Shown here: positions 2,414-64,000 of the stretch, piece by piece
Layout of the letters: every line of letters starts with the position of its first letter
Position numbering within the stretch: the stretch's first letter is position 1
NCBI GenBank assembly: GCA_963738405.1
Contig: CAVTWJ010000004.1
Location: 13,499 to 77,498 of the forward strand
Reading direction: 5' to 3'
From: a candidate division FCPU426 bacterium
GTDB lineage: Bacteria > Oederibacteriota > Muellerivitia > Muellerivitales > Muellerivitaceae
Length of the DNA: 64,000 bases
Position numbers and translations under genes: made by a program
The notes under the pieces: model-generated
The model's database searches: none
Told to the model about the DNA's origin: nothing
What the model saw: the letters and a program-made list of their open reading frames with translations, nothing else

Positions 2414-3040
2414 CTAGGATGCTTCCTTGGCCTTAACTTTAGCCTTCCCCATCATTGCCTTTTCCCTGACCGTGACCAAAAACGAGATCGACTTGAAACG
2501 GGGCTTCTCATTCAGCTTGGTGTCGGCGATGCTGAATTCCAACACTCTTATTTCCACGTCAAAGCCGGGGTAATGGATGATCCTCAGGGCGCTTCGGTCC
2601 GTGGGAATCCCGGGGCCGGGCCTGAGGGGCCGGGGGGAGAAATTATCGTCGGTCCTAAAGTCGGCGGCGGAAACTTCCCGAAGGGTGGGGACATCCTTGG
2701 TTTCCACAGGCGTCAGCAGGTCTTGGTCCGCCTCGTCTTTGGAAAAGGAAAACATATAGCCCTCAATGCCCTTTTCCCCCGACTCGGTGGTGACTTGTAA
2801 AAACAAATCGTCCCAAACCTTGCTGTAAAACCGGGTCTCATCCCCCGCGGGGAGGGCGGGCAGGCCGTCGGCCTTATCCTCGGTGAGCACCAAATAGGTG
2901 GAAGCCACCCGGAGGGGGTCGTGGGGCCCGTTGTGGTCGAACTTTTCAATGATCCGGTTGTCGTCGTCGGCCCGGCAAACGCCCGTCAGCCCGGCGGACA
3001 GGATCAAAACCATCACCCAACCCACGGTTATCTTTTTCAT
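2414..3040 (-). CDS. Secreted hypothetical protein
   Basis: Start refined to MKKITVGWVMVLILSAGLTGVCRA (signal peptide) with GGAGGG SD; no recognisable domain. Confidence 0.55.
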   Translation of the reverse strand: MKKITVGWVMVLILSAGLTGVCRADDDNRIIEKFDHNGPHDPLRVASTYLVLTEDKADGLPALPAGDETRFYSKVWDDLFLQVTTESGEKGIEGYMFSFSKDEADQDLLTPVETKDVPTLREVSAADFRTDDNFSPRPLRPGPGIPTDRSALRIIHYPGFDVEIRVLEFSIADTKLNEKPRFKSISFLVTVREKAMMGKAKVKAKEAS

Positions 3041-3116
3041 ACGCCCCTCCTTTTTCTTTTCCCGCCCCAACTTTTCCCAACAAAACCGAAACATCCTTTT
3101 TTCGGGAGGGCCCGAA

Positions 3117-8718: not shown

Positions 8719-9087
8719 TCAGGCGACGTGAATCCGGTTTAACTGCTGGGAAAGTAGATCCATATCCGTTTTTTTCACCGCTAGAAATTTTAATCCCGCA
8801 AGCAAATCGGTGGCCCAGACCACATCCACAAAGGCCGTGATGGTTTCATTGCGGTCAGGTAATAGAAGCTTCAAATTTAAAAGATTCCCGGCGCTCAAGC
8901 GGCCATCCTGCGCCACGCAGAGTCCGCCCAAACTGGTATCCAGGGTTTGCGATTGGTTTTCGCTTTTTGTTAATTCGCTGACGTTATGGGCCGAAATTTT
9001 TTCCTCGAGCACCCGATACCTTACCGGCATCTTCAGGGGAACTCTTTCAAAAGCTCTTTTCTCGGCAAACAGGTTCTGGTCGGACAT
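8719..9087 (-). CDS. PilZ-domain (c-di-GMP-binding) protein
   Basis: RxxxR motif (EKRAFERV) and D-x-S-x-GG motif (DTSLGGL); start refined to MSDQNLF. Confidence 0.65.
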   Translation of the reverse strand: MSDQNLFAEKRAFERVPLKMPVRYRVLEEKISAHNVSELTKSENQSQTLDTSLGGLCVAQDGRLSAGNLLNLKLLLPDRNETITAFVDVVWATDLLAGLKFLAVKKTDMDLLSQQLNRIHVA

Positions 9088-9336
9088 TGGGAGCCATCCT
9101 TTTGTCGCTTTCAGGCGACGCTGGGTTGTAACTAGAGCTCTATATGCGCTGTAAATAGGCCCCAAATCAATTAAAACCAGGCCATAAATTGGGCAAACGT
9201 CAGGCCTGAACCGAGGTACCCATTCCTTGTTTGGGAATGGGTACACCAATTCTCGCCCTTCGGTTTGAGACCTCAGGGCATGGGCCCTCCCACCCCTTAA
9301 CCTACGTAAAATCCCTTTGTTTTATTCAAAATATTC

Positions 9337-9365
9337 TTGACGACACCCTTAAAAGCCCCAATAAT
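9337..9365 (+). promoter_or_regulatory. Sigma70-like promoter (TTGACG-17 nt-AATAAT) for the mraZ/dcw operon
   Basis: Near-consensus -35 and -10 hexamers with a 17-nt spacer, ~80 nt upstream of mraZ. Confidence 0.4.
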
Positions 9366-9373
9366 GGCGCCAA

Positions 9374-9398
9374 GTGGGTATTAGTGGTAGGAAGTGGT
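9374..9398 (+). promoter_or_regulatory. Putative MraZ operator: three direct GTGG[GT] repeats at exact 10-bp spacing
   Basis: GTGGG(9374) GTGGT(9384) GTGGT(9394) just downstream of the -10; matches the known MraZ-box arrangement. Confidence 0.5.
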
Positions 9399-9903: not shown

Positions 9904-9913
9904 GAGGGTGGAA

Positions 9914-10264
9914 ATGGTCGGTATTGAGATCAAGGAAAAATTTTCGCTGATCCATGTCACCGGGGATTTAAGCGAAGACGACTTGGGCGCCCTCCGGACG
10001 GCCATCGATACCTTGATGACCCGGGGCTACCGGCATGTGGTGCTCGATTTGAAGGAAGTGGCGTTCATGAACGCCCGGGGCTTGGGGGCCCTGGTGAACC
10101 ATTGGGGGCAGGTGCGCTTCAAGAGGGGGGATTTGAAGATTGTGGGGCTCAACAGCCGCCTGATGCATCTATTCAGGTCCATGGGGGTGGAACAGATATT
10201 CGAGGTCTACCCCAGCGTTGAGGAAATGATGGAAAAGACCGGCCGGATGCCGGCCATCGCTTAA
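9914..10264 (+). CDS. STAS-domain anti-sigma-factor antagonist (SpoIIAA-like)
   Basis: STAS pattern HVTGDLSEDDLGALR...HVVLDLKEVAFMNARGLGALV...LKIVGLNSRLMHLFRSMGV; GGAGGG SD. Confidence 0.75.
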   Translation: MVGIEIKEKFSLIHVTGDLSEDDLGALRTAIDTLMTRGYRHVVLDLKEVAFMNARGLGALVNHWGQVRFKRGDLKIVGLNSRLMHLFRSMGVEQIFEVYPSVEEMMEKTGRMPAIA

Positions 10265-10288: not shown

Positions 10289-10627
10289 GTGGCCGTTGCC
10301 TTAGCGCCTGAAGAAACCGTGACCGTGCTTCGCCTTGCCGGAGACCTTTCGCTCCATGACATGGAGGGGCTCTCCAGCGTATTGACCGACATGTCGGTCA
10401 AGGGCAAGACGCGGGTCATTCTTAATTTCCGCCAGGTCAACCATGTGGCCCTGGGCGGCATCTCCAAACTGGCGGAAAGAAATTTCCGCCTCCGAAGCCT
10501 GGGCGGAGAAATCAAGCTGGTGGCGGTGGCTCCCTATGTCGCCAACCTTTTCAAGCTGGTTGGAGCCCTTGGCTATTTTGACGTTGTTTCCAACGAGGAC
10601 CTGGCCCTGGCCCGGTTCGACGCCTAA
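10289..10627 (+). CDS. Second STAS-domain anti-sigma-factor antagonist
   Basis: LRLAGDLSLHDMEGL...RVILNFRQVNHVALGGISKLA...IKLVAVAPYVANLFKLVG; GTG start with AAGGGGGA SD. Confidence 0.7.
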   Translation: MAVALAPEETVTVLRLAGDLSLHDMEGLSSVLTDMSVKGKTRVILNFRQVNHVALGGISKLAERNFRLRSLGGEIKLVAVAPYVANLFKLVGALGYFDVVSNEDLALARFDA

Positions 10628-18338: not shown

Positions 18339-19721
18339 ATGATCAACGTGAACGGAAAACAAGTGGCGGTTCTGGGGCTGGGCCGGTCGGGATTCGCCGC
18401 CGCCAAGCTCCTCTCCCTCCATGGCGCCCAGGTGGTCATCCTGGACGACAAGAGCCCCGAAAAGCTCTCGGCTTGGATCGAGAAGGCGAAGGGCCTCGCC
18501 CGTACCCGCTTGGCCCTGGGGGGAGGGAACATGGGTGAACTTACCGCCTGCGACCTCGTGGTGACCTCCCCCGGCGTGCCCATCAACCATCCGATACTCG
18601 AAAGAGCCGTTGAGAAGGGCCTGCCAGTCGTGGGTGAAATGGAGTTGGCTTTCGGCTATTGCGCGGCCCCGGTGGCGGCTGTGACGGGAACCAACGGGAA
18701 AACCACCACCACCACCCTCCTCACCCAAATGATCCTTCAAGGGGGCCGCAAGGCCGTGGCCTGCGGGAATATCGGGAAAGCCTTCTCGGAGGCGGTGTTT
18801 GAGCTGGGCGCGGAGGATCTGGCGGTTTTGGAAGTCTCCAGCTTCCAATTGGAAACCATCCAGGAATTTCACCCGAAAATCGCCGCCATCCTCAATGTCA
18901 CTCCGGACCACCTGGACCGGCACGGCTCCATGCAGGCCTATGTCCAGGCCAAGGGGCGGATCTTCGAGAAGCAAACCGGGGGGGATGCCGTCCTCTTGAA
19001 CGCCTCCGACAAATACACGCCGATCTTTTCTTCCATGGTCCAAAGTTCCCTTTACCAGTTTGGTTTTCCCAAGGAGGGCCGGGACGACGGCAAGCCGGGC
19101 TGCTACGCCGCCGGCTCCCACATCGAACTCTTGGGACGGAAACTTTTCAAGATTTCCGACCTGCGGATTCCCGGCCCCCACAACGTGGAAAACGCCTGCG
19201 CGGCGGCCCTGGCGGCCTCCTTGGCGGGTACGAGCGATGAGGCCCTCACCCAAACCCTTTTCTCTTTTGAGGGCGTGGAGCACCGGCTGGAAGCCGCTGG
19301 TGAAATAGGCGGGGTGCGTTTTGTGAATGACTCCAAGGGCACCAACGTGGATTCGGTGGTGAAGGCCCTGGAAAGTTTTCCCAAGCCCATTGTTTTGATC
19401 CTGGGCGGACGGGACAAGGCCGGGGATTTCACCCGATTGATCCCCCTGATCACGGAAAAGGTGACCCGAGTGGTGGCCTTCGGCGAGTGCAAGACCAAGG
19501 TGGCGGCCCAGTTATCCACGGCGACCACCGTCGTGGAAGCCGGTTCCTTGGAGGAGACGGTTAAGGGGGCCTTGGCGGCCAGTGAAAAGGGAGGAACGGT
19601 TCTTTTTTCTCCCGGGTGCGCCAGTTTCGACATGTTTGAGAACTACGAGGATCGGGGCCGTCAGTTCAAGACCCTGGTTAAAAAGTTGAGCGAGTCGCGC
19701 CTCGGCGCGGCCCGAACGTAA
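18339..19721 (+). CDS. murD: UDP-MurNAc-L-Ala:D-Glu ligase MurD
   Basis: N-terminal Rossmann VAVLGLGRSG, P-loop AVTGTNGKTTTT. Confidence 0.9.
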   Translation: MINVNGKQVAVLGLGRSGFAAAKLLSLHGAQVVILDDKSPEKLSAWIEKAKGLARTRLALGGGNMGELTACDLVVTSPGVPINHPILERAVEKGLPVVGEMELAFGYCAAPVAAVTGTNGKTTTTTLLTQMILQGGRKAVACGNIGKAFSEAVFELGAEDLAVLEVSSFQLETIQEFHPKIAAILNVTPDHLDRHGSMQAYVQAKGRIFEKQTGGDAVLLNASDKYTPIFSSMVQSSLYQFGFPKEGRDDGKPGCYAAGSHIELLGRKLFKISDLRIPGPHNVENACAAALAASLAGTSDEALTQTLFSFEGVEHRLEAAGEIGGVRFVNDSKGTNVDSVVKALESFPKPIVLILGGRDKAGDFTRLIPLITEKVTRVVAFGECKTKVAAQLSTATTVVEAGSLEETVKGALAASEKGGTVLFSPGCASFDMFENYEDRGRQFKTLVKKLSESRLGAART

Positions 19722-19734
19722 CAAAGGAGAAAGT

Positions 19735-19941
19735 ATGTTCATCATCCGCTTGGACGAAAAAGAATCGAAACGCATCCATGCCGCCGTCCAATCGGGAAGG
19801 GAGGTTTCATTTTTGCGCTCGGATTCTGACAGCACCACCTACCACACCTTTTCCACACCTACTACGCCTTGGTCGGAATCCGAACGGAAGGATGAAATTC
19901 CCTATGTGGAGGCCTTTAAGGCCTTGAAGGAGAAAAGGTGA
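19735..19941 (+). CDS. Hypothetical 68-aa protein encoded between murD and ftsW
   Basis: Strong SD AAAGGAGAAAG 6 nt before the ATG; its stop overlaps the ftsW GTG start (translational coupling); no recognisable domain. Confidence 0.4.
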   Translation: MFIIRLDEKESKRIHAAVQSGREVSFLRSDSDSTTYHTFSTPTTPWSESERKDEIPYVEAFKALKEKR

Positions 19942-21089
19942 GACGCTCCAACCCCATCCAGTCTTCCCCGGACTTCCTTTTGTTTTTACTGACGGTGGTC
20001 CTGGTCACCGCGGGGCTCATCATGGTTTACAGCTCCTCGGCCATCCTGGCCCATGACCGCTATGGAAGCTCCTATTACTTCTTTCTGCGCCAGCTGCTTT
20101 GGGTGGGGGTGGGCGGTTTGGGACTATGGTTCTCCTCCCGGATGGATCTCGAGTCCTTAAGGGCCCTGGCCATCCCAGCCCTCTTTGTCGCCCTTATGTT
20201 GATGCTGTTGGTTTGCGTGCCGGGATTGGGCCGTACGGTGGGCGGGGCGCAAAGGTGGTTCCGGTTAGGGCCCTTTTCTTTCCAGCCATCCGAAGTCTTC
20301 AAGATCGCCCTGGTTTTTTACCTGGCTGATTCCCTGGACCGCCGAAGCGGTCAATTGGCCCAAATATCAGGCCTTTTGCCTTATTTCGCGATTCTCGGGA
20401 TCGGCATGGTGCTCTTGGAAAAACAGCACGATTTCGGTACGGCGGTGCTTTTGGCCCTGGTCACCCTGCAACTGATGCTTTTGGCCGGGATGCAATGGAA
20501 GTTTTTCATGATTCCCACGGCCATCCTGATTCCCACCTTTACCTTTCTCGTGGAATCGGCCAGCTACCGCATGAAACGTATCACGGCTTTCCTGAATCCC
20601 TGGGAGGATCCCCAGGGGGCGGGCTTTCAGCTCATTCAAAGCCTCATCGCGGTGGGCAACGGCGGGCCCTTCGGAGTGGGTCTTTCCAACAGCACCCAGA
20701 AGCTTTTTTACCTGCCGGCGCCCCACACCGATTTTATTTTCGCGGTCATCGCCGAGGAACTGGGACTTTGGGGCGCTGGGACCCTGGTGTTTCTTTTCGC
20801 GGTTTTTATTTTGAGGGGCTTCAAGGTGGCGGCCATAGCGGGGCAGAGGGAAAACGGACTCTTCAAAGCCCTTCTGGCCTCCGGCATCACGGGCTTGATC
20901 GGTTTCCAGGCGATCGTGAACCTGGGGGTGGTGACGGGACTTCTCCCCACCAAGGGCATTCCCCTTCCCCTCATCTCTTACGGCGGGTCTTCCATGGTTT
21001 TCACGCTTTTTTCCATCGGGATCCTCTTCAATATTTCCCGAGAGACGAAAATCGCGTCGCCTTTCGGGACCAAGGTCGTGACGGCGTGA
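19938..21089 (+). CDS. ftsW: SEDS-family peptidoglycan glycosyltransferase FtsW
   Basis: 10-TM SEDS protein, conserved FQPSE and LPTKG motifs; GTG start. Confidence 0.9.
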   Translation: MRRSNPIQSSPDFLLFLLTVVLVTAGLIMVYSSSAILAHDRYGSSYYFFLRQLLWVGVGGLGLWFSSRMDLESLRALAIPALFVALMLMLLVCVPGLGRTVGGAQRWFRLGPFSFQPSEVFKIALVFYLADSLDRRSGQLAQISGLLPYFAILGIGMVLLEKQHDFGTAVLLALVTLQLMLLAGMQWKFFMIPTAILIPTFTFLVESASYRMKRITAFLNPWEDPQGAGFQLIQSLIAVGNGGPFGVGLSNSTQKLFYLPAPHTDFIFAVIAEELGLWGAGTLVFLFAVFILRGFKVAAIAGQRENGLFKALLASGITGLIGFQAIVNLGVVTGLLPTKGIPLPLISYGGSSMVFTLFSIGILFNISRETKIASPFGTKVVTA

Positions 21090-36151: not shown

Positions 36152-38887
36152 ATGAAGAATCAGTCCTTGTTGATTACGATCGGGCTTTTGTTTTTTGCAG
36201 CTTGCTTCTATATTTCCTGCGGAAGCGGCAGTCCCACGGCGCCGGCCCCCACCCCCGTTCCCGTGCCCACCGATACCCCTTGCGGTTATCCGGGCAATAC
36301 CTGCACAGTGACCTCCACCTTTACCTCGACCGATACGCCTACCTCGACCCATACGGCCACGACCACTTATTCGCCCACCCAAACCAATACCCCGACCCAA
36401 ACCTTCACCTGGACGGTCACGAAAACCCCGACGGACACCTTTACGTCAACTTCCACCTTTACGATAACGGATACACCGACAATAACGGATACACCCACCC
36501 ACACCCACACCTACACCTTCACCTTCAGCCCCACGGAAACCAGGACTTCGACGGAAACCTTCACACCGTCCGATACCCCTACGATTACGGATACCCCCAC
36601 CGTATCCAACACGCCCACCGTGACCAATACCCTGACCAGTACTACCACGCCCACTGTCACGAACACGGTGACCTGCACGAACACCCCGACCAACACTTCC
36701 CAATATTCCTCTACCTATACACCCACGATCACTCGCACGGCCACGATCACCTTAAGTCCCACCAATACCTCCACGTCCACGCCAGTGGGTATTTTCGTCA
36801 GCGGTTCGGTGACCTACACGGGGGCGGGAACCGTCTCGTCGGCCAACCCCATCGTGATTATCGCCTCCAATCCCCTGGCAACGAACGGGATGCCCGAAAC
36901 GGTTATCACCACAAACGGAGGCTCTTATTCTTTCGCGGTGACCGGTGGGAATAATTCCATCGTCTGCTGGTACTCGAACAAAGCGCCGCTCAATTGCCTG
37001 ACGAATGGCGGGGCCCCAGAGCAGGGGAATTACATGGGCTGGTACAACGGGGGCGCCCAGCCAGTCACGATCAATATCACTTCCAGTACTTCCAACATCA
37101 ACGTCACGATTGGTTCGGGCAGCGCCCTCCAGGGGGTTGCCGGGCCGGTGAGTTACCTGGGATTGAACAGCGTCGATAACAACCACCCGGTGATCGTGGA
37201 ACTCTTCAAGGACAGCGGCTACAGCACCCTGGACCAGTCGATGGGCCCGGGCGAGGAAGAGTTCAGCTGTGCCCATTCGACTTACAACTTCGCCTCCAGC
37301 AACAACGGGTCGACCGAATACCTGCTGGCTTTCCAGGACAACGCGGGTACGGGCCGCGTGAACGCCGCCAGTCAGGTTCCCGGCGGGGACCCGATGGTTT
37401 TGGCCGGATCCGTGGTGATTGGTACCTCAACGACCAAGAATATCGCTTTTCCCACTTCCACGCCGACCATGACGGTCACCTCCACCCCGATCCCCGCCCC
37501 CTACGTCTTCAAGGGAACGATCCATTACACCGGCGCAAAAAGCACTGCGGGCCAATACCTATTGATGATGGCCACCACCTGCATCAGCTGCGGCGGCAAC
37601 GATATGGTCACTTGGTCCACCCCGGGAACCTCGAGCGCGGTTTCCTATACCCTCAACCTGCCCTCCACCGGCAGTTACGTGGTCATGGGCATGTTGTCCA
37701 ATGATCCGGTCATGAACGGGCCGCCGCCGGTGGGCGCGCCTTACGGATTCTACGGAACAGGCACTGTTTGTTTGGGAGGAACACCCACGACCCTGGCCGT
37801 GAACGGGCCTACCACGCAGACTGCCAACATGTCTTTTGGGGACAGCTGCGAACTGAATGGTGTTTCGGGGACCATCAGCTACACCGGCGCGGGCTCAGTG
37901 GGCAGTAATGGTAACTCGCTGTATGTGACGGCTTATACGGATTCAAGCTACTCGACTCAGATTTCGGGACCCGGAAACAACTCCGTGACGGTGAATGGGG
38001 GCACTTATAACGTGATCAACACCGGCGGCGCCCCCACTACCGTCTATCTCCAGGCTTATTACGGGTCCGACAATAACAACGCCCCGGCAACCTGTGACGC
38101 GGTGACCAATTTAGGCCCGGTGGCCTTCAACACCACCACGACCACCAAAAATATCACGCTTTCCGACGCCTTCCTCTACAACTGCACGAACACCCTCTCG
38201 GGCACCGTCAATTGGACAGGGGCCGGCACGGTCAACACGTCCGATCCCATCGTCGTGCATGCCGTCCTTTGCCCCAGCGGGGATTGCAACAACCAAACGA
38301 ACTACTCTTGCGCAGTGACCCAAAACGGCGGGAACTATTTCGTGGGTTTTCCCGCAGCGGGATCCGTTTACGTTTCTGAGGAATACGTGGCCACGGGAAG
38401 GATTTGGAACAATTGGGATTACAACATCGGAAGCTACGCCGAAAATGCCGATGGAACTTGTTCCATCGAGACCGGCAATAATGGAAACCCCGTCATCGTC
38501 AGCGGAGCCGCCGTTTCAAACCTGAGTTTCGGTTCCAGTTGTGGACAACTCCAGGGTTATACCGGAACCGTGACCTATAACGGTTCCAAGGGCGCCCCGA
38601 CTTGCAATGGAAACCCCGGACGCCAAATTTGGGTCTCGGCCACGTATGGAAACAGTAAAAACGAGTTTTCCTATTGGGATACTAGCGTATGCAATAACGG
38701 TGACACCTATAAGATCATCTATGGAACAACGAGCGCGAGTCTATATTTGAGGGTCTGGTTTGATGACCAGGGTACGGGTGACCACCAGCCGCAGACCGGC
38801 GAGTCTGGGACCGTAGTGGGTCCCTACGTTACGAGCACCAACCCAACCTCTATCAACATTTCCTTTGATGATTCCCAAACCTGGTAA
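36152..38887 (+). CDS. Large repetitive surface lipoprotein: lipobox, ~180-aa Thr/Pro-rich tract, then ~5 repeated ~130-aa domains (G-x-[VI]-x-[YW]-T-G-A-G)
   Basis: Signal peptide plus lipobox YISC; TPT/TDT low-complexity region; recurring GSVTYTGAG, GTISYTGAG, GTVNWTGAG, GTVTYNGSKG units; terminator follows. Confidence 0.7.
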   Translation: MKNQSLLITIGLLFFAACFYISCGSGSPTAPAPTPVPVPTDTPCGYPGNTCTVTSTFTSTDTPTSTHTATTTYSPTQTNTPTQTFTWTVTKTPTDTFTSTSTFTITDTPTITDTPTHTHTYTFTFSPTETRTSTETFTPSDTPTITDTPTVSNTPTVTNTLTSTTTPTVTNTVTCTNTPTNTSQYSSTYTPTITRTATITLSPTNTSTSTPVGIFVSGSVTYTGAGTVSSANPIVIIASNPLATNGMPETVITTNGGSYSFAVTGGNNSIVCWYSNKAPLNCLTNGGAPEQGNYMGWYNGGAQPVTINITSSTSNINVTIGSGSALQGVAGPVSYLGLNSVDNNHPVIVELFKDSGYSTLDQSMGPGEEEFSCAHSTYNFASSNNGSTEYLLAFQDNAGTGRVNAASQVPGGDPMVLAGSVVIGTSTTKNIAFPTSTPTMTVTSTPIPAPYVFKGTIHYTGAKSTAGQYLLMMATTCISCGGNDMVTWSTPGTSSAVSYTLNLPSTGSYVVMGMLSNDPVMNGPPPVGAPYGFYGTGTVCLGGTPTTLAVNGPTTQTANMSFGDSCELNGVSGTISYTGAGSVGSNGNSLYVTAYTDSSYSTQISGPGNNSVTVNGGTYNVINTGGAPTTVYLQAYYGSDNNNAPATCDAVTNLGPVAFNTTTTTKNITLSDAFLYNCTNTLSGTVNWTGAGTVNTSDPIVVHAVLCPSGDCNNQTNYSCAVTQNGGNYFVGFPAAGSVYVSEEYVATGRIWNNWDYNIGSYAENADGTCSIETGNNGNPVIVSGAAVSNLSFGSSCGQLQGYTGTVTYNGSKGAPTCNGNPGRQIWVSATYGNSKNEFSYWDTSVCNNGDTYKIIYGTTSASLYLRVWFDDQGTGDHQPQTGESGTVVGPYVTSTNPTSINISFDDSQTW
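36270..36790 (+). repeat. Low-complexity ACC/ACG-rich coding repeat (Thr/Pro linker of the lipoprotein)
   Basis: Imperfect tandem acg-ccc-acc / acc-gat-acc units encoding TPT, TDT, TNT. Confidence 0.5.
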
Positions 38888-63222: not shown

Positions 63223-64000
63223 TGGGGATTCAGGCACTTTTAGACAAATCATCTTCACTCGCCCCCGGAACCCCCCTGCCCGAAAGCACCCTCAACCGCC
63301 CGCTCATCCAAAAAGCCTACGAATTCGCCAAAAAGGCCCATGAGGGACAGCAGCGCCTATCGGGCGATGAATACCTGACCCACCTAGTCGGCGTGGCCGA
63401 CATTTTGGCCGAACTGCATATGGATTCGGTCACCATCGCCGCCGGGCTTCTTCACGATATCCTCGAAGACACCACCATTACCTTTGACCAGCTCAAGGCC
63501 GAGTTCGGCGATGAGATCGCCAATCTGGTGGACGGGGTTACCAAGATCACCAAGCGCAAGTTCCAAGATTCCACCATGCGCCAGGCCGAATCCACCCGCA
63601 AGATGATGGTGGCCATGGCCAAGGACGTGCGGGTTATCCTCATCAAACTGGCCGACCGTACCCATAATATGCGCACCCTCGAATTCCTTCCTCCCGACCG
63701 ACGGATCAAGATGGCCCAAGAAACGTTAGAACTTTACGCCCCCCTGGCCCACCGATTGGGGATATCCAAAATCAAGAGCGAGCTCGAAGACCTCTGCATG
63801 CGCACCCTTCAGCCGGATGAATACCGGGAACTGGTTAAAAAAGTGGCCATGAAGAAGGCCGAGCGGGAACAGATGCTGGAAGGCATCAAGACCCTGCTGG
63901 AACAAAGAATGAAAGAAGCGGGCATTTCCGCCCAGGTTCAGGGAAGGTCCAAACATTTCACCAGCATTTACCAGAAGATGATCCAACAGCAAAAGACCTT
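63223..64000 (+). CDS. Bifunctional (p)ppGpp synthetase/hydrolase RelA/SpoT family, N-terminal HD domain (partial, runs off the window)
   Basis: Translation ...YEFAKKAHEGQQRLSGDEYLTHLVGVADILAELHMDSVTIAAGLLHDILEDT...LIKLADRTHNMRTL... is the HD hydrolase domain; GAGGT SD before ATG 63223 (alternative ATG 63211); missed by the ORF track because no stop lies in the window. Confidence 0.85.

Follow-up and report, generated by a model that had tools for sequence, protein, structure and literature searches.

Among the closest described counterparts to the locus reported here are the leader systems SecM-secA, MifM-yidC2 and ermCL-ermC, in which a hairpin sequesters the downstream Shine-Dalgarno (SD) sequence and a defined arrest peptide stalls the ribosome and, inside the cluster of division and cell-wall genes (dcw) itself, the direct-repeat arrays with a 10-bp spacing that MraZ binds at the dcw promoter. 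Few gene arrangements are conserved among bacteria to the degree that the dcw cluster is, and beyond a handful of model organisms little is understood, to our knowledge, of how one long transcript balances its peptidoglycan-precursor genes against its divisome genes. The subject here is the murD-ftsW junction of the dcw cluster in a 64,000-nt stretch of DNA from a candidate division FCPU426 bacterium (contig CAVTWJ010000004.1; the whole of this stretch is referred to as the window), where a 68-codon open reading frame (ORF), ORF68, runs across an RNA hairpin and stops on the start codon of ftsW. The locus shares with the leader systems a short ORF placed directly before an essential or membrane-biogenesis gene and a translation that passes through or abuts a stable mRNA hairpin, and as in those systems the position of the ribosome on the leader would be expected to remodel the hairpin.

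A first-pass annotation of the window, made from the sequence alone, had drawn attention to the small ORF and had read it either as an unannotated divisome accessory protein or as a coupling or leader ORF controlling the translation of ftsW. It is shown below that the most conserved part of ORF68 is conserved as RNA, and that the hairpin is older and more widespread than the ORF, since deep branches carry the hairpin and have no ORF. On balance we think it reasonably likely that ORF68 is a lineage-specific translated leader or coupling ORF superposed on an ancestral RNA element that acts in cis in the dcw mRNA.

The RNA hairpin between murD and ftsW

The core of ORF68, which reads SFLRSDSD...SESERKDE when translated, is conserved as the two arms of an RNA hairpin and not as a protein, because the spacing of the arms varies, the blocks occur in different frames, about half of the lineages have no ORF there and the ratio of nonsynonymous (pN) to synonymous (pS) change is flat in three frames. 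Across the clade the arm-to-arm distance is 55, 57, 58 or 59 nt, thus varying by numbers that are not multiples of three, and the nucleotides that encode the SFLRSDSD and SESERKDE blocks are present in the spacer of every close relative, in many cases out of frame with each other or with no ORF at all; indeed no ORF spans the hairpin in roughly half of 45 lineages. The first-pass annotation had considered that the nucleotides might be conserved and the reading frame not, and this is what is found for codons ~21-56, where pS is depressed to 0.19 and pN/pS lies at 0.73-0.87 in all three frames, but not for codons 2-21, where selection is specific to the frame of ORF68.

The helix of the hairpin is 22-26 bp long and in the window it consists of 26 paired positions and two single mismatches, with a conserved core of 22 pairs; the block UUUCAUUYUURCGYUCGGAUUCUGA is complementary to UCGGAAUCCGAACGRARGRAUGAAA. 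The window hairpin has a minimum free energy of -31.8 kcal/mol and a fold z-score of -4.3 on the + strand, against -1.9 on the opposite strand; its inner helix, formed by UCGGAUUC and GAAUCCGA, is invariant and a purine-purine mismatch is conserved.

Covariation was assessed on an alignment (A3) of 45 non-redundant elements, all of which lie between murD and ftsW. RNAalifold returned a 21-bp consensus hairpin from this alignment with compensatory changes in 8 pairs, and when the 22-pair structure was scored 96.7% of pair cells were paired as opposed to 91.2% in shuffled alignments, with compensatory double changes in 10 pairs; neither value was reached in any of 500 shuffles, and moving the partner by 1-3 columns as a control brought the pairing down to 27-62%. 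Some of the pairs are U·G, for example that of columns 35-90 in 42 of the 45 sequences, which would be C·A on the - strand, and as such pairs are valid only on the + strand the RNA can be placed on the + strand. A covariance model (R1) gives the element 113 bits on the + strand versus 38 bits on the - strand, and it finds a single copy in the window.

The loop carries repeats of the form CNACRCC(U), which in the window stand at 19833-40, 19842-49, 19853-60 and 19862-69 with a spacing of 9/11/9 nt; there are four of them in 31/45 elements and three in 14/45, with spacings of 9-11 nt. Taken together with the upper stem, the stretch between the arms is 47-52 nt long and is composed of 39% C, 26% A, 23% U and 12% G. 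Elsewhere on the + strand, at ~36200-37500, ~3010-3090 and 63243-63330, the window has C-rich, G-poor stretches that are its strongest and that exceed the hairpin loop at all window sizes tested.

One segment of the window loop, CACCUUUUC (19845-19853), is a perfect 9-nt complement of GAAAAGGUG (19932-19940), which comprises the ftsW spacer and GTG, with a duplex of -21.2 kcal/mol, and L004, one of the relatives that are given L numbers here, has a matching double change in this complement (CACUUUUUC/GAAAAAGUG). The idea that the loop serves as an antisense partner of the ftsW initiation region was rejected: over 43 loci the cognate pairs average -11.3 and the non-cognate ones -10.35, so that conservation of the pairing is not seen.

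An SD-like purine tract (GAAAGGAGG, 19793-19806) is found 2-8 nt before the conserved helix in 41 of the 45 loci, among them lineages that have no ORF across the hairpin. Pairing with the loop or with the 3' flank does not explain the tract. A pseudoknot of this 5' flank with the loop, as well as pairing between the 5' and 3' flanks, was no better than in shuffles, and the possibility that the tract drives a conserved mini-ORF, (I/M)F(A/T)(L/F)GF-stop in frame C, was discarded because the start codon is not conserved.

A search for known RNA families with Rfam 15 gave 0 matches over the whole window at gathering thresholds, and a cmscan of 19400-20300 at E <= 10 yielded only a 12-bit match to a small nucleolar RNA that is noise; ARAGORN identified no transfer RNA or transfer-messenger RNA, and nothing relevant to an intergenic RNA or a small ORF between murD and ftsW was found in the literature. 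The hairpin is not an intrinsic terminator, there being 0 terminator-like sites in 19400-20100 and a 3' flank of GAUGAAAUUCCC. Nor is it a dispersed repeat resembling repetitive extragenic palindromic (REP) sequences or miniature inverted-repeat transposable elements, given its one copy in the window and its strict synteny in 28 metagenome and 24 genome matches.

The metagenome matches were obtained by a DNA-pattern scan of metagenome contigs that gave 33 in total, of which the 28 full elements all lie between murD and ftsW; the remaining 5, which lie in different contexts and have neither the loop nor the outer stem, are fortuitous. All 24 genome matches are likewise located between murD and ftsW, and when model R1 was applied to 60 outgroup loci no hairpin was found. 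Relatives were identified by an FtsW scan with one genome for each GTDB species. The closest by FtsW are metagenome-assembled genomes (MAGs) labelled candidate division FCPU426 (62-86% identity), followed at 40-49% identity by more distant FCPU426, Omnitrophota, Desulfobacterota and others. The gap between murD and ftsW is 113-535 nt throughout the close clade, and in ~49 of the 57 more distant genomes the two genes overlap or lie within ~50 nt of each other.

Within the gap the hairpin floats: the murD stop precedes it by 8-314 nt and the ftsW start follows it at 6-204 nt. On a neighbour-joining tree of FtsW, ORF68 is found in one main clade (the window, L088, L002, L004/6 and L086/7) and elsewhere in L009 and L020; the remainder of the core group consists of hairpin-only lineages. 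ORF68 is missing from the deepest branches that bear the hairpin, namely L022 and L106 as placed on the tree and L093 and L105 by MurD/FtsW identity, and L040 and other FCPU426 are without the hairpin.

ORF68 and the selection on its codons

ORF68 is present exactly where the first-pass annotation had placed it (Table 1), and the near-consensus SD, the TGA stop overlapping the GTG of ftsW and a peptide that is rich in Ser/Thr (15 in 68 residues) and has no hydrophobic segment were all described correctly. To call it unannotated is not strictly right, as the JGI and NCBI gene callers already list homologues as 'hypothetical protein'. The ATG sits 13 nt after the murD stop. A start of ftsW further upstream, which would have made ORF68 an artefact, the ftsW 5' end read in another frame, is ruled out by an in-frame stop of the ftsW frame at 19917-19919.

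The claim of a conserved position holds within the lineage of the window, where position, length (68 codons) and stop/start overlap are all kept. A word-indexed protein search returned ten homologues of 68-70 aa with 60-93% identity, none of them with a Pfam domain, and the order murD-ORF68-ftsW with a 4-nt stop/start overlap was seen wherever the DNA was fetched (L002-L006, L086-L090). The ORF68 stop shares nucleotides with the ftsW start in 10 of the 11 members, where the junction reads GTGA or ATGA, and in 10/11 the C-terminal 40 nt are in frame to the ftsW start. All eight relatives (8/8) have an SD-like purine block 5-9 nt before the ATG of ORF68, the upstream flanks being otherwise unalignable. 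A homologue from a nanopore-derived MAG (L025:3744-3935) has a 1-nt deletion leading to a stop 13 nt before the ftsW GTG, which is either a sequencing indel or a natural truncation.

Selection was examined with a codon-level pN/pS test on ten ORF68 sequences, in frame and in both shifted frames. Codons 2-21 have a pS of 0.55 and a pN of 0.13, a ratio of 0.24 in frame versus 1.37 and 1.37 in the shifted frames; variable sites are distributed over the codon positions as 8/7/17, an excess at the third position, and there are zero indels in the 10 sequences. For codons 57-68 the ratio is 0.75, versus 1.0 and 0.89 in the shifted frames. The signature in codons 2-21 makes translation plausible, together with an SD that has been kept despite divergent flanks, the fixed length and the stop overlap in 10/11 members, and ORF68 is probably translated in the lineage of the window, at least at its start.

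The remainder of the peptide has other origins. Its middle is rich in Ser, Thr and Asp because of the ACN-rich loop repeats and the UCG, UCU and GAU codons of the arms, and its C-terminal K-E-K(K/R) is encoded by AAG-GAG-AAA, that is by the ftsW SD (AAGGAG); the Ser/Thr-rich middle is thus a by-product of the RNA element, and the KEK tail one of the ftsW SD. The predicted tryptic peptides of ORF68 are IHAAVQSGR, EVSFLR, SDSDSTTYHTFSTPTTPWSESER and DEIPYVEAFK.

Searches at the level of the protein gave 0 Pfam families at E <= 1, NCBIfam matches in 0 of the 11 members and only noise in a PDB profile search (E >= 0.43). AlphaFold2 gave a mean predicted local distance difference test score (pLDDT) of 57.6 and a predicted template modelling score (pTM) of 0.26, with helices at residues 8-20 and 55-67 and disorder over 21-47. 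A ribbon-helix-helix fold of the CopG/Arc type, which had been suspected from the N-terminal pattern FIIRL-x-helix-G, was rejected, there being no Pfam or PDB match to such a fold and neither an N-terminal strand nor a helix B in the model, with residues 21-47 disordered.

A HMMER search with the family profile against 1.84 billion representative proteins recovered the family itself, nine gene calls matching residues 20-59 only and four low-complexity matches, with no homologue outside the narrow clade. The nine extra gene calls represent the hairpin as translated in other lineages of FCPU426. Two of them, P0012 and P0014 (= L020), are 100 aa long, begin MLFIHLEPSESRRIHDAM / MLFNPLEPSG... and look like diverged, expanded relatives of the ORF68 N-terminus.

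Other ORFs also cross the hairpin. Those of L007/L024, L010, L013/L114, L014, L020, L092, L101 and L103 are 48-106 aa long, have tails unrelated to ORF68 and end no more than ~11 nt from the ftsW start, and in six loci (L007, L024, L010, L013, L114 and L014) the start ATG of such bridging ORFs arises from the MurD C-terminus (..AATGTTTAA). The bridging ORFs hint at selection for ribosome traffic across the spacer, at a frequency not clearly above chance (~5/18 long-spacer loci).

Table 1. Coordinates of the features at the murD-ftsW junction (positions in the window)
Feature	Position	Strand	Description
ORF68	19735..19941	+	68 codons, ATG start; TGA stop 19939-19941; probably a translated leader or coupling ORF; homologues and conserved gene order
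ORF68 SD	19723..19733	+	AAAGGAGAAAG; GGAG 5 nt before the ATG; SD-like purine block kept in relatives
ORF68 N-terminal ~21 codons	19735..19797	+	MFIIRLDEKESKRIHAAVQSG; only part with a protein-level coding signature; AlphaFold2 helix 8-20
Hairpin 5' arm	19803..19830	+	Clade-conserved part 19807-19830; UCGGAUUC (19819-19826) invariant; minimum free energy fold, alignments A2/A3, RNAalifold, pair counts
Hairpin loop	19831..19871	+	41 nt, G-poor, C/A-rich, single-stranded; four CNACRCC(U) repeats; invariant C/A columns in A3
Hairpin 3' arm	19872..19899	+	Conserved part 19872-19895; GAAUCCGAA invariant; covariance model R1, pair counts
murD	18339..19721	+	460 aa; upstream gene; TAA stop 19719-19721; Pfam Mur_ligase_M, MurD-like_N, Mur_ligase_C (three Mur ligase domains)
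ftsW	19938..21089	+	383 aa; GTG start 19938-19940 overlaps the ORF68 stop as GTGA; Pfam PF01098, 3e-107
ftsW SD	19926..19932	+	GAAGGAG, 5 nt before the GTG; inside the last ORF68 codons, outside the hairpin; encodes the conserved C-terminal K-E-K

The dcw cluster of the window is complete and lies on the + strand in the order mraZ (9445), rsmH, ftsL, ftsI, murE, murF, mraY, murD, ftsW, murG, murC, murB, ddl, ftsQ, ftsA and ftsZ; the murD-ftsW gap is 216 nt, and nearly all other junctions overlap or are shorter than ~35 nt. The mraZ promoter region (9337-9398) has TTGACG (9337-42), a 17-nt spacer and AATAAT (9360-65), followed downstream by the direct repeats AGTGGG (9373-78), AGTGGT (9383-88) and AGTGGT (9393-98) at exactly 10-bp spacing, and this array of three AGTGGK looks like the MraZ operator array of the organism. 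Genes mraZ and rsmH are ordinarily adjacent, and here two tandem genes for STAS-domain proteins (anti-sigma-antagonist-like; 118 and 112 aa; 9908-10264 and 10289-10627) lie between them. Upstream of the dcw promoter, and divergent from it, is a gene for a PilZ-domain protein (8719-9249, - strand). Relatives have further lineage-specific insertions in the cluster, such as a 54-aa ORF between mraY and murD in L088 (4308-4472) and spacers of 145-243 nt from murD to ORF68 in L087 and L086.

Proposed explanation and its rivals

The ancestral feature is a strand-specific structured RNA carried on the dcw polycistronic mRNA, once per genome and in one FCPU426 clade. As a cis-acting intercistronic element the hairpin may be either a platform for a trans-acting factor, which is our leading guess, or a determinant of processing or stability, and it would determine how strongly ftsW and the division genes downstream are expressed in comparison with the mur genes upstream. 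In the lineage of the window a 68-codon ORF has been laid over this hairpin, such that ribosomes would start at a strong SD after the murD stop, translate a selected N-terminus of ~20 residues, go on through the whole hairpin, arms and loop, and terminate at the GTG of ftsW (GUGA). Translation would be expected to melt the helix and to cover the loop, and we infer that ORF68 acts mainly as a leader or coupling ORF which delivers ribosomes to ftsW and either overrides the RNA element or modulates it.

The suggestion of a leader or coupling ORF in the first-pass annotation is thus plausible, given the conserved layout, the retained SD and the selection on codons 2-21, but the stop/start overlap does not by itself speak for coupling, as ATGA or GTGA is also found at the ftsW start in lineages that have no ORF68. 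This weighs against a coupling function, as does the presence of a strong ftsW SD beyond the hairpin, which makes coupling unnecessary for initiation, and the distance from the hairpin to the ftsW start (6-204 nt) argues against one fixed translational mechanism. The purifying selection on the N-terminus is not explained by pure coupling; it means that the sequence of the peptide matters to some degree, beyond that of a mere conveyor of ribosomes, and the peptide may have a role of its own. The patchy occurrence of ORF68 on the FtsW tree is a further point against, as it could reflect either a single late gain or an earlier gain with repeated loss in the core group. Finally, neither a U-tract terminator nor a promoter was found for the hairpin, the pairing of the loop with ftsW is not conserved, and at the 78-nt scale the loop is too short for a typical Rho utilisation (rut) site.

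The N-terminal selection would be accounted for if ORF68 were a stand-alone functional small protein, for example an accessory factor of the divisome or of peptidoglycan synthesis whose overlap with the hairpin is incidental dual coding, and so would the two helices of the AlphaFold2 model, the length and position fixed in ~11 lineages and the retention of an N-terminus like MFIIRLDxKESxRIH by the diverged 100-aa relatives (P0012 and P0014/L020). We regard this as unlikely, as protein-level constraint is seen in only ~20 of the 68 residues, with the middle following the RNA and the tail following the ftsW SD, and as sister lineages with the same dcw cluster and hairpin do without ORF68; the early stop in L025 points the same way, though it may be a nanopore indel error. 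Nothing supports the divisome accessory protein of the first-pass annotation: there is no Pfam, NCBIfam or PDB relative, no homologue outside the narrow clade among the 1.84 billion representatives, no transmembrane segment, and the model is of low confidence and largely disordered. At the other extreme ORF68 could be untranslated, an accidental open frame kept free of stops by the G-poor loop and the constrained arms, with only the hairpin being functional. That the conserved core is RNA and that about half of the lineages have no ORF at this place would agree with such a view, and since frame B is also open across the hairpin in ORF68 loci (ORFs of 49-84 aa) open frames across the element come cheaply. 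It is nevertheless quite improbable in the light of codons 2-21, which lie outside the hairpin and combine a pN/pS of 0.24, against 1.37 in both other frames, with the third-position excess and the lack of indels, and of a good SD at the right distance although the upstream sequence is unalignable; the C-terminal 40 nt held in frame to the ftsW start in 10/11 members speak against it too.

The element might also be thought to act as DNA, with the four repeats at ~10-bp spacing forming an internal operator, for example for MraZ, or the inverted repeat forming a palindrome or cruciform that controls an internal ftsW promoter. The spacing of 9/11/9 bp, the presence in the same cluster of a repeat-array operator (three AGTGGK at 10 bp at the mraZ promoter) and inner arms that are invariant, as in a palindrome recognised by a protein, would be in keeping with this, but CNACRCC (reverse complement GGYGTNG) is not the AGTGGK of the mraZ promoter, the 10 compensated stem pairs and the U·G pairs, which are strand-specific, point to selection for pairing as RNA, the + strand is strongly preferred by the covariance model and there is no sigma-70-like promoter in 19400-20100, all of which leaves a role as DNA very improbable. 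For the hairpin as RNA a more definite mechanism can be envisaged, in which the loop loads Rho, or a KH/S1-type protein, to exert a conditional polarity on ftsW and the genes downstream that is relieved by translation, or in which RNase III-type processing at the ~26-bp helix gives the mur and fts halves of the transcript stabilities independent of each other. The loop is in the top 0.1% of 45-nt windows on the + strand for C minus G (best C-G = 18, with 57 of 63,955 windows higher), has regular YC-containing repeats 9-11 nt apart and, being almost devoid of G, is unable to form internal structure. The helix, at >=22 bp with internal mismatches, is of the size class of RNase III substrates and exceeds the ~20 bp of near-continuous double-stranded RNA of an RNase III-type site, at which cleavage would be putative only. 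Several sister lineages have unrelated ORFs which span the spacer across the element, from the murD stop to the ftsW start, and this fits selection for ribosome cover. Even so this remains a doubtful proposal, for at the 78-nt scale on which rut sites are predicted the region is unremarkable (907 windows rank higher), the excess of bridging ORFs is not clearly above chance, and neither Rho nor RNase III requires an invariant stem or a conserved loop sequence.

A broader proposal, which we put forward tentatively and as no better than possible, is that the hairpin belongs to a so far undescribed class of structured RNA with a regulatory function specific to the murD-ftsW junction. The invariant helix and the four loop repeats would recruit a specific factor, such as Rho, a KH/S1-type protein or a G-rich partner RNA, that gates the divisome half of the dcw operon, and ORFs would have evolved across the hairpin independently in different lineages, as ORF68 or as the bridging ORFs, with the ribosome traffic from murD tuning the gate.

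Whatever its mechanism, the hairpin is an uncatalogued RNA element supported by covariation which lies exactly at the murD-ftsW boundary in an uncultured phylum, and over which a small ORF is written in one lineage. If the leader or coupling reading of ORF68 is correct, the hairpin would be a new candidate point of post-transcriptional control for FtsW, the septal peptidoglycan polymerase, and the locus would provide a clean natural case of dual RNA and protein constraint on the same nucleotides, in which a protein-coding sequence has been overprinted on an older RNA element. It would also serve as a warning for small-protein discovery, as strong conservation of a 'peptide' (SFLRSDSD...SESERKDE) can be driven wholly by RNA. 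The immediate impact is limited by the confinement of the element to one clade of an uncultured phylum.

Comparison with known systems

The likeness to the SecM, MifM and Erm leaders goes only so far, as the ftsW SD (19926-19932) is outside the hairpin (19803-19899) and neither the SD nor the start codon is sequestered in the window; it is only in a few minimal spacers (those of L008, 113 nt long and free of an ORF, and of L123) that the 3' arm of the hairpin supplies the sole SD-like sequence for ftsW. Furthermore the hairpin lies inside ORF68, is present in many lineages that have no leader ORF, and no known arrest motif was recognised by eye in the peptide. With translational coupling through ATGA or GTGA the locus shares an upstream stop that overlaps the downstream start, in 10 of the 11 members, but it departs from plain stop/start coupling in that ftsW has a strong SD of its own and in that the same ATGA occurs where no upstream ORF ends, hence the overlap is compatible with coupling and is not proof of it.

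As in the intercistronic stem-loops that serve as RNase III sites, as REP sequences or bacterial interspersed mosaic elements (BIME), or as stabilisers in the puf and mal operons, a long stable helix is found between two cistrons and is not followed by the U-tract of a terminator. Unlike them, the hairpin is single-copy and syntenic, with an invariant inner helix and a conserved loop of 41-52 nt with four repeats, neither of which is needed by a simple stabiliser or an RNase III site. Rut sites and Rho-dependent attenuators also present a C-rich, G-poor unstructured segment with spaced C-motifs inside an operon, which translation would be expected to mask, whereas here the segment is only ~45 nt long, is enclosed by a long helix, is conserved in sequence and is unexceptional at 78 nt. 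With MraZ operator arrays the element has in common its short direct repeats of ~10-bp period within the dcw cluster, but its repeats differ in sequence and follow one another at 9/11/9 and not at 10/10, and they are flanked by arms that show RNA covariation. Falling into no Rfam or Pfam family, the arrangement as a whole would appear, from its sequence, to be an intercistronic regulatory RNA on which a leader ORF has been overprinted.

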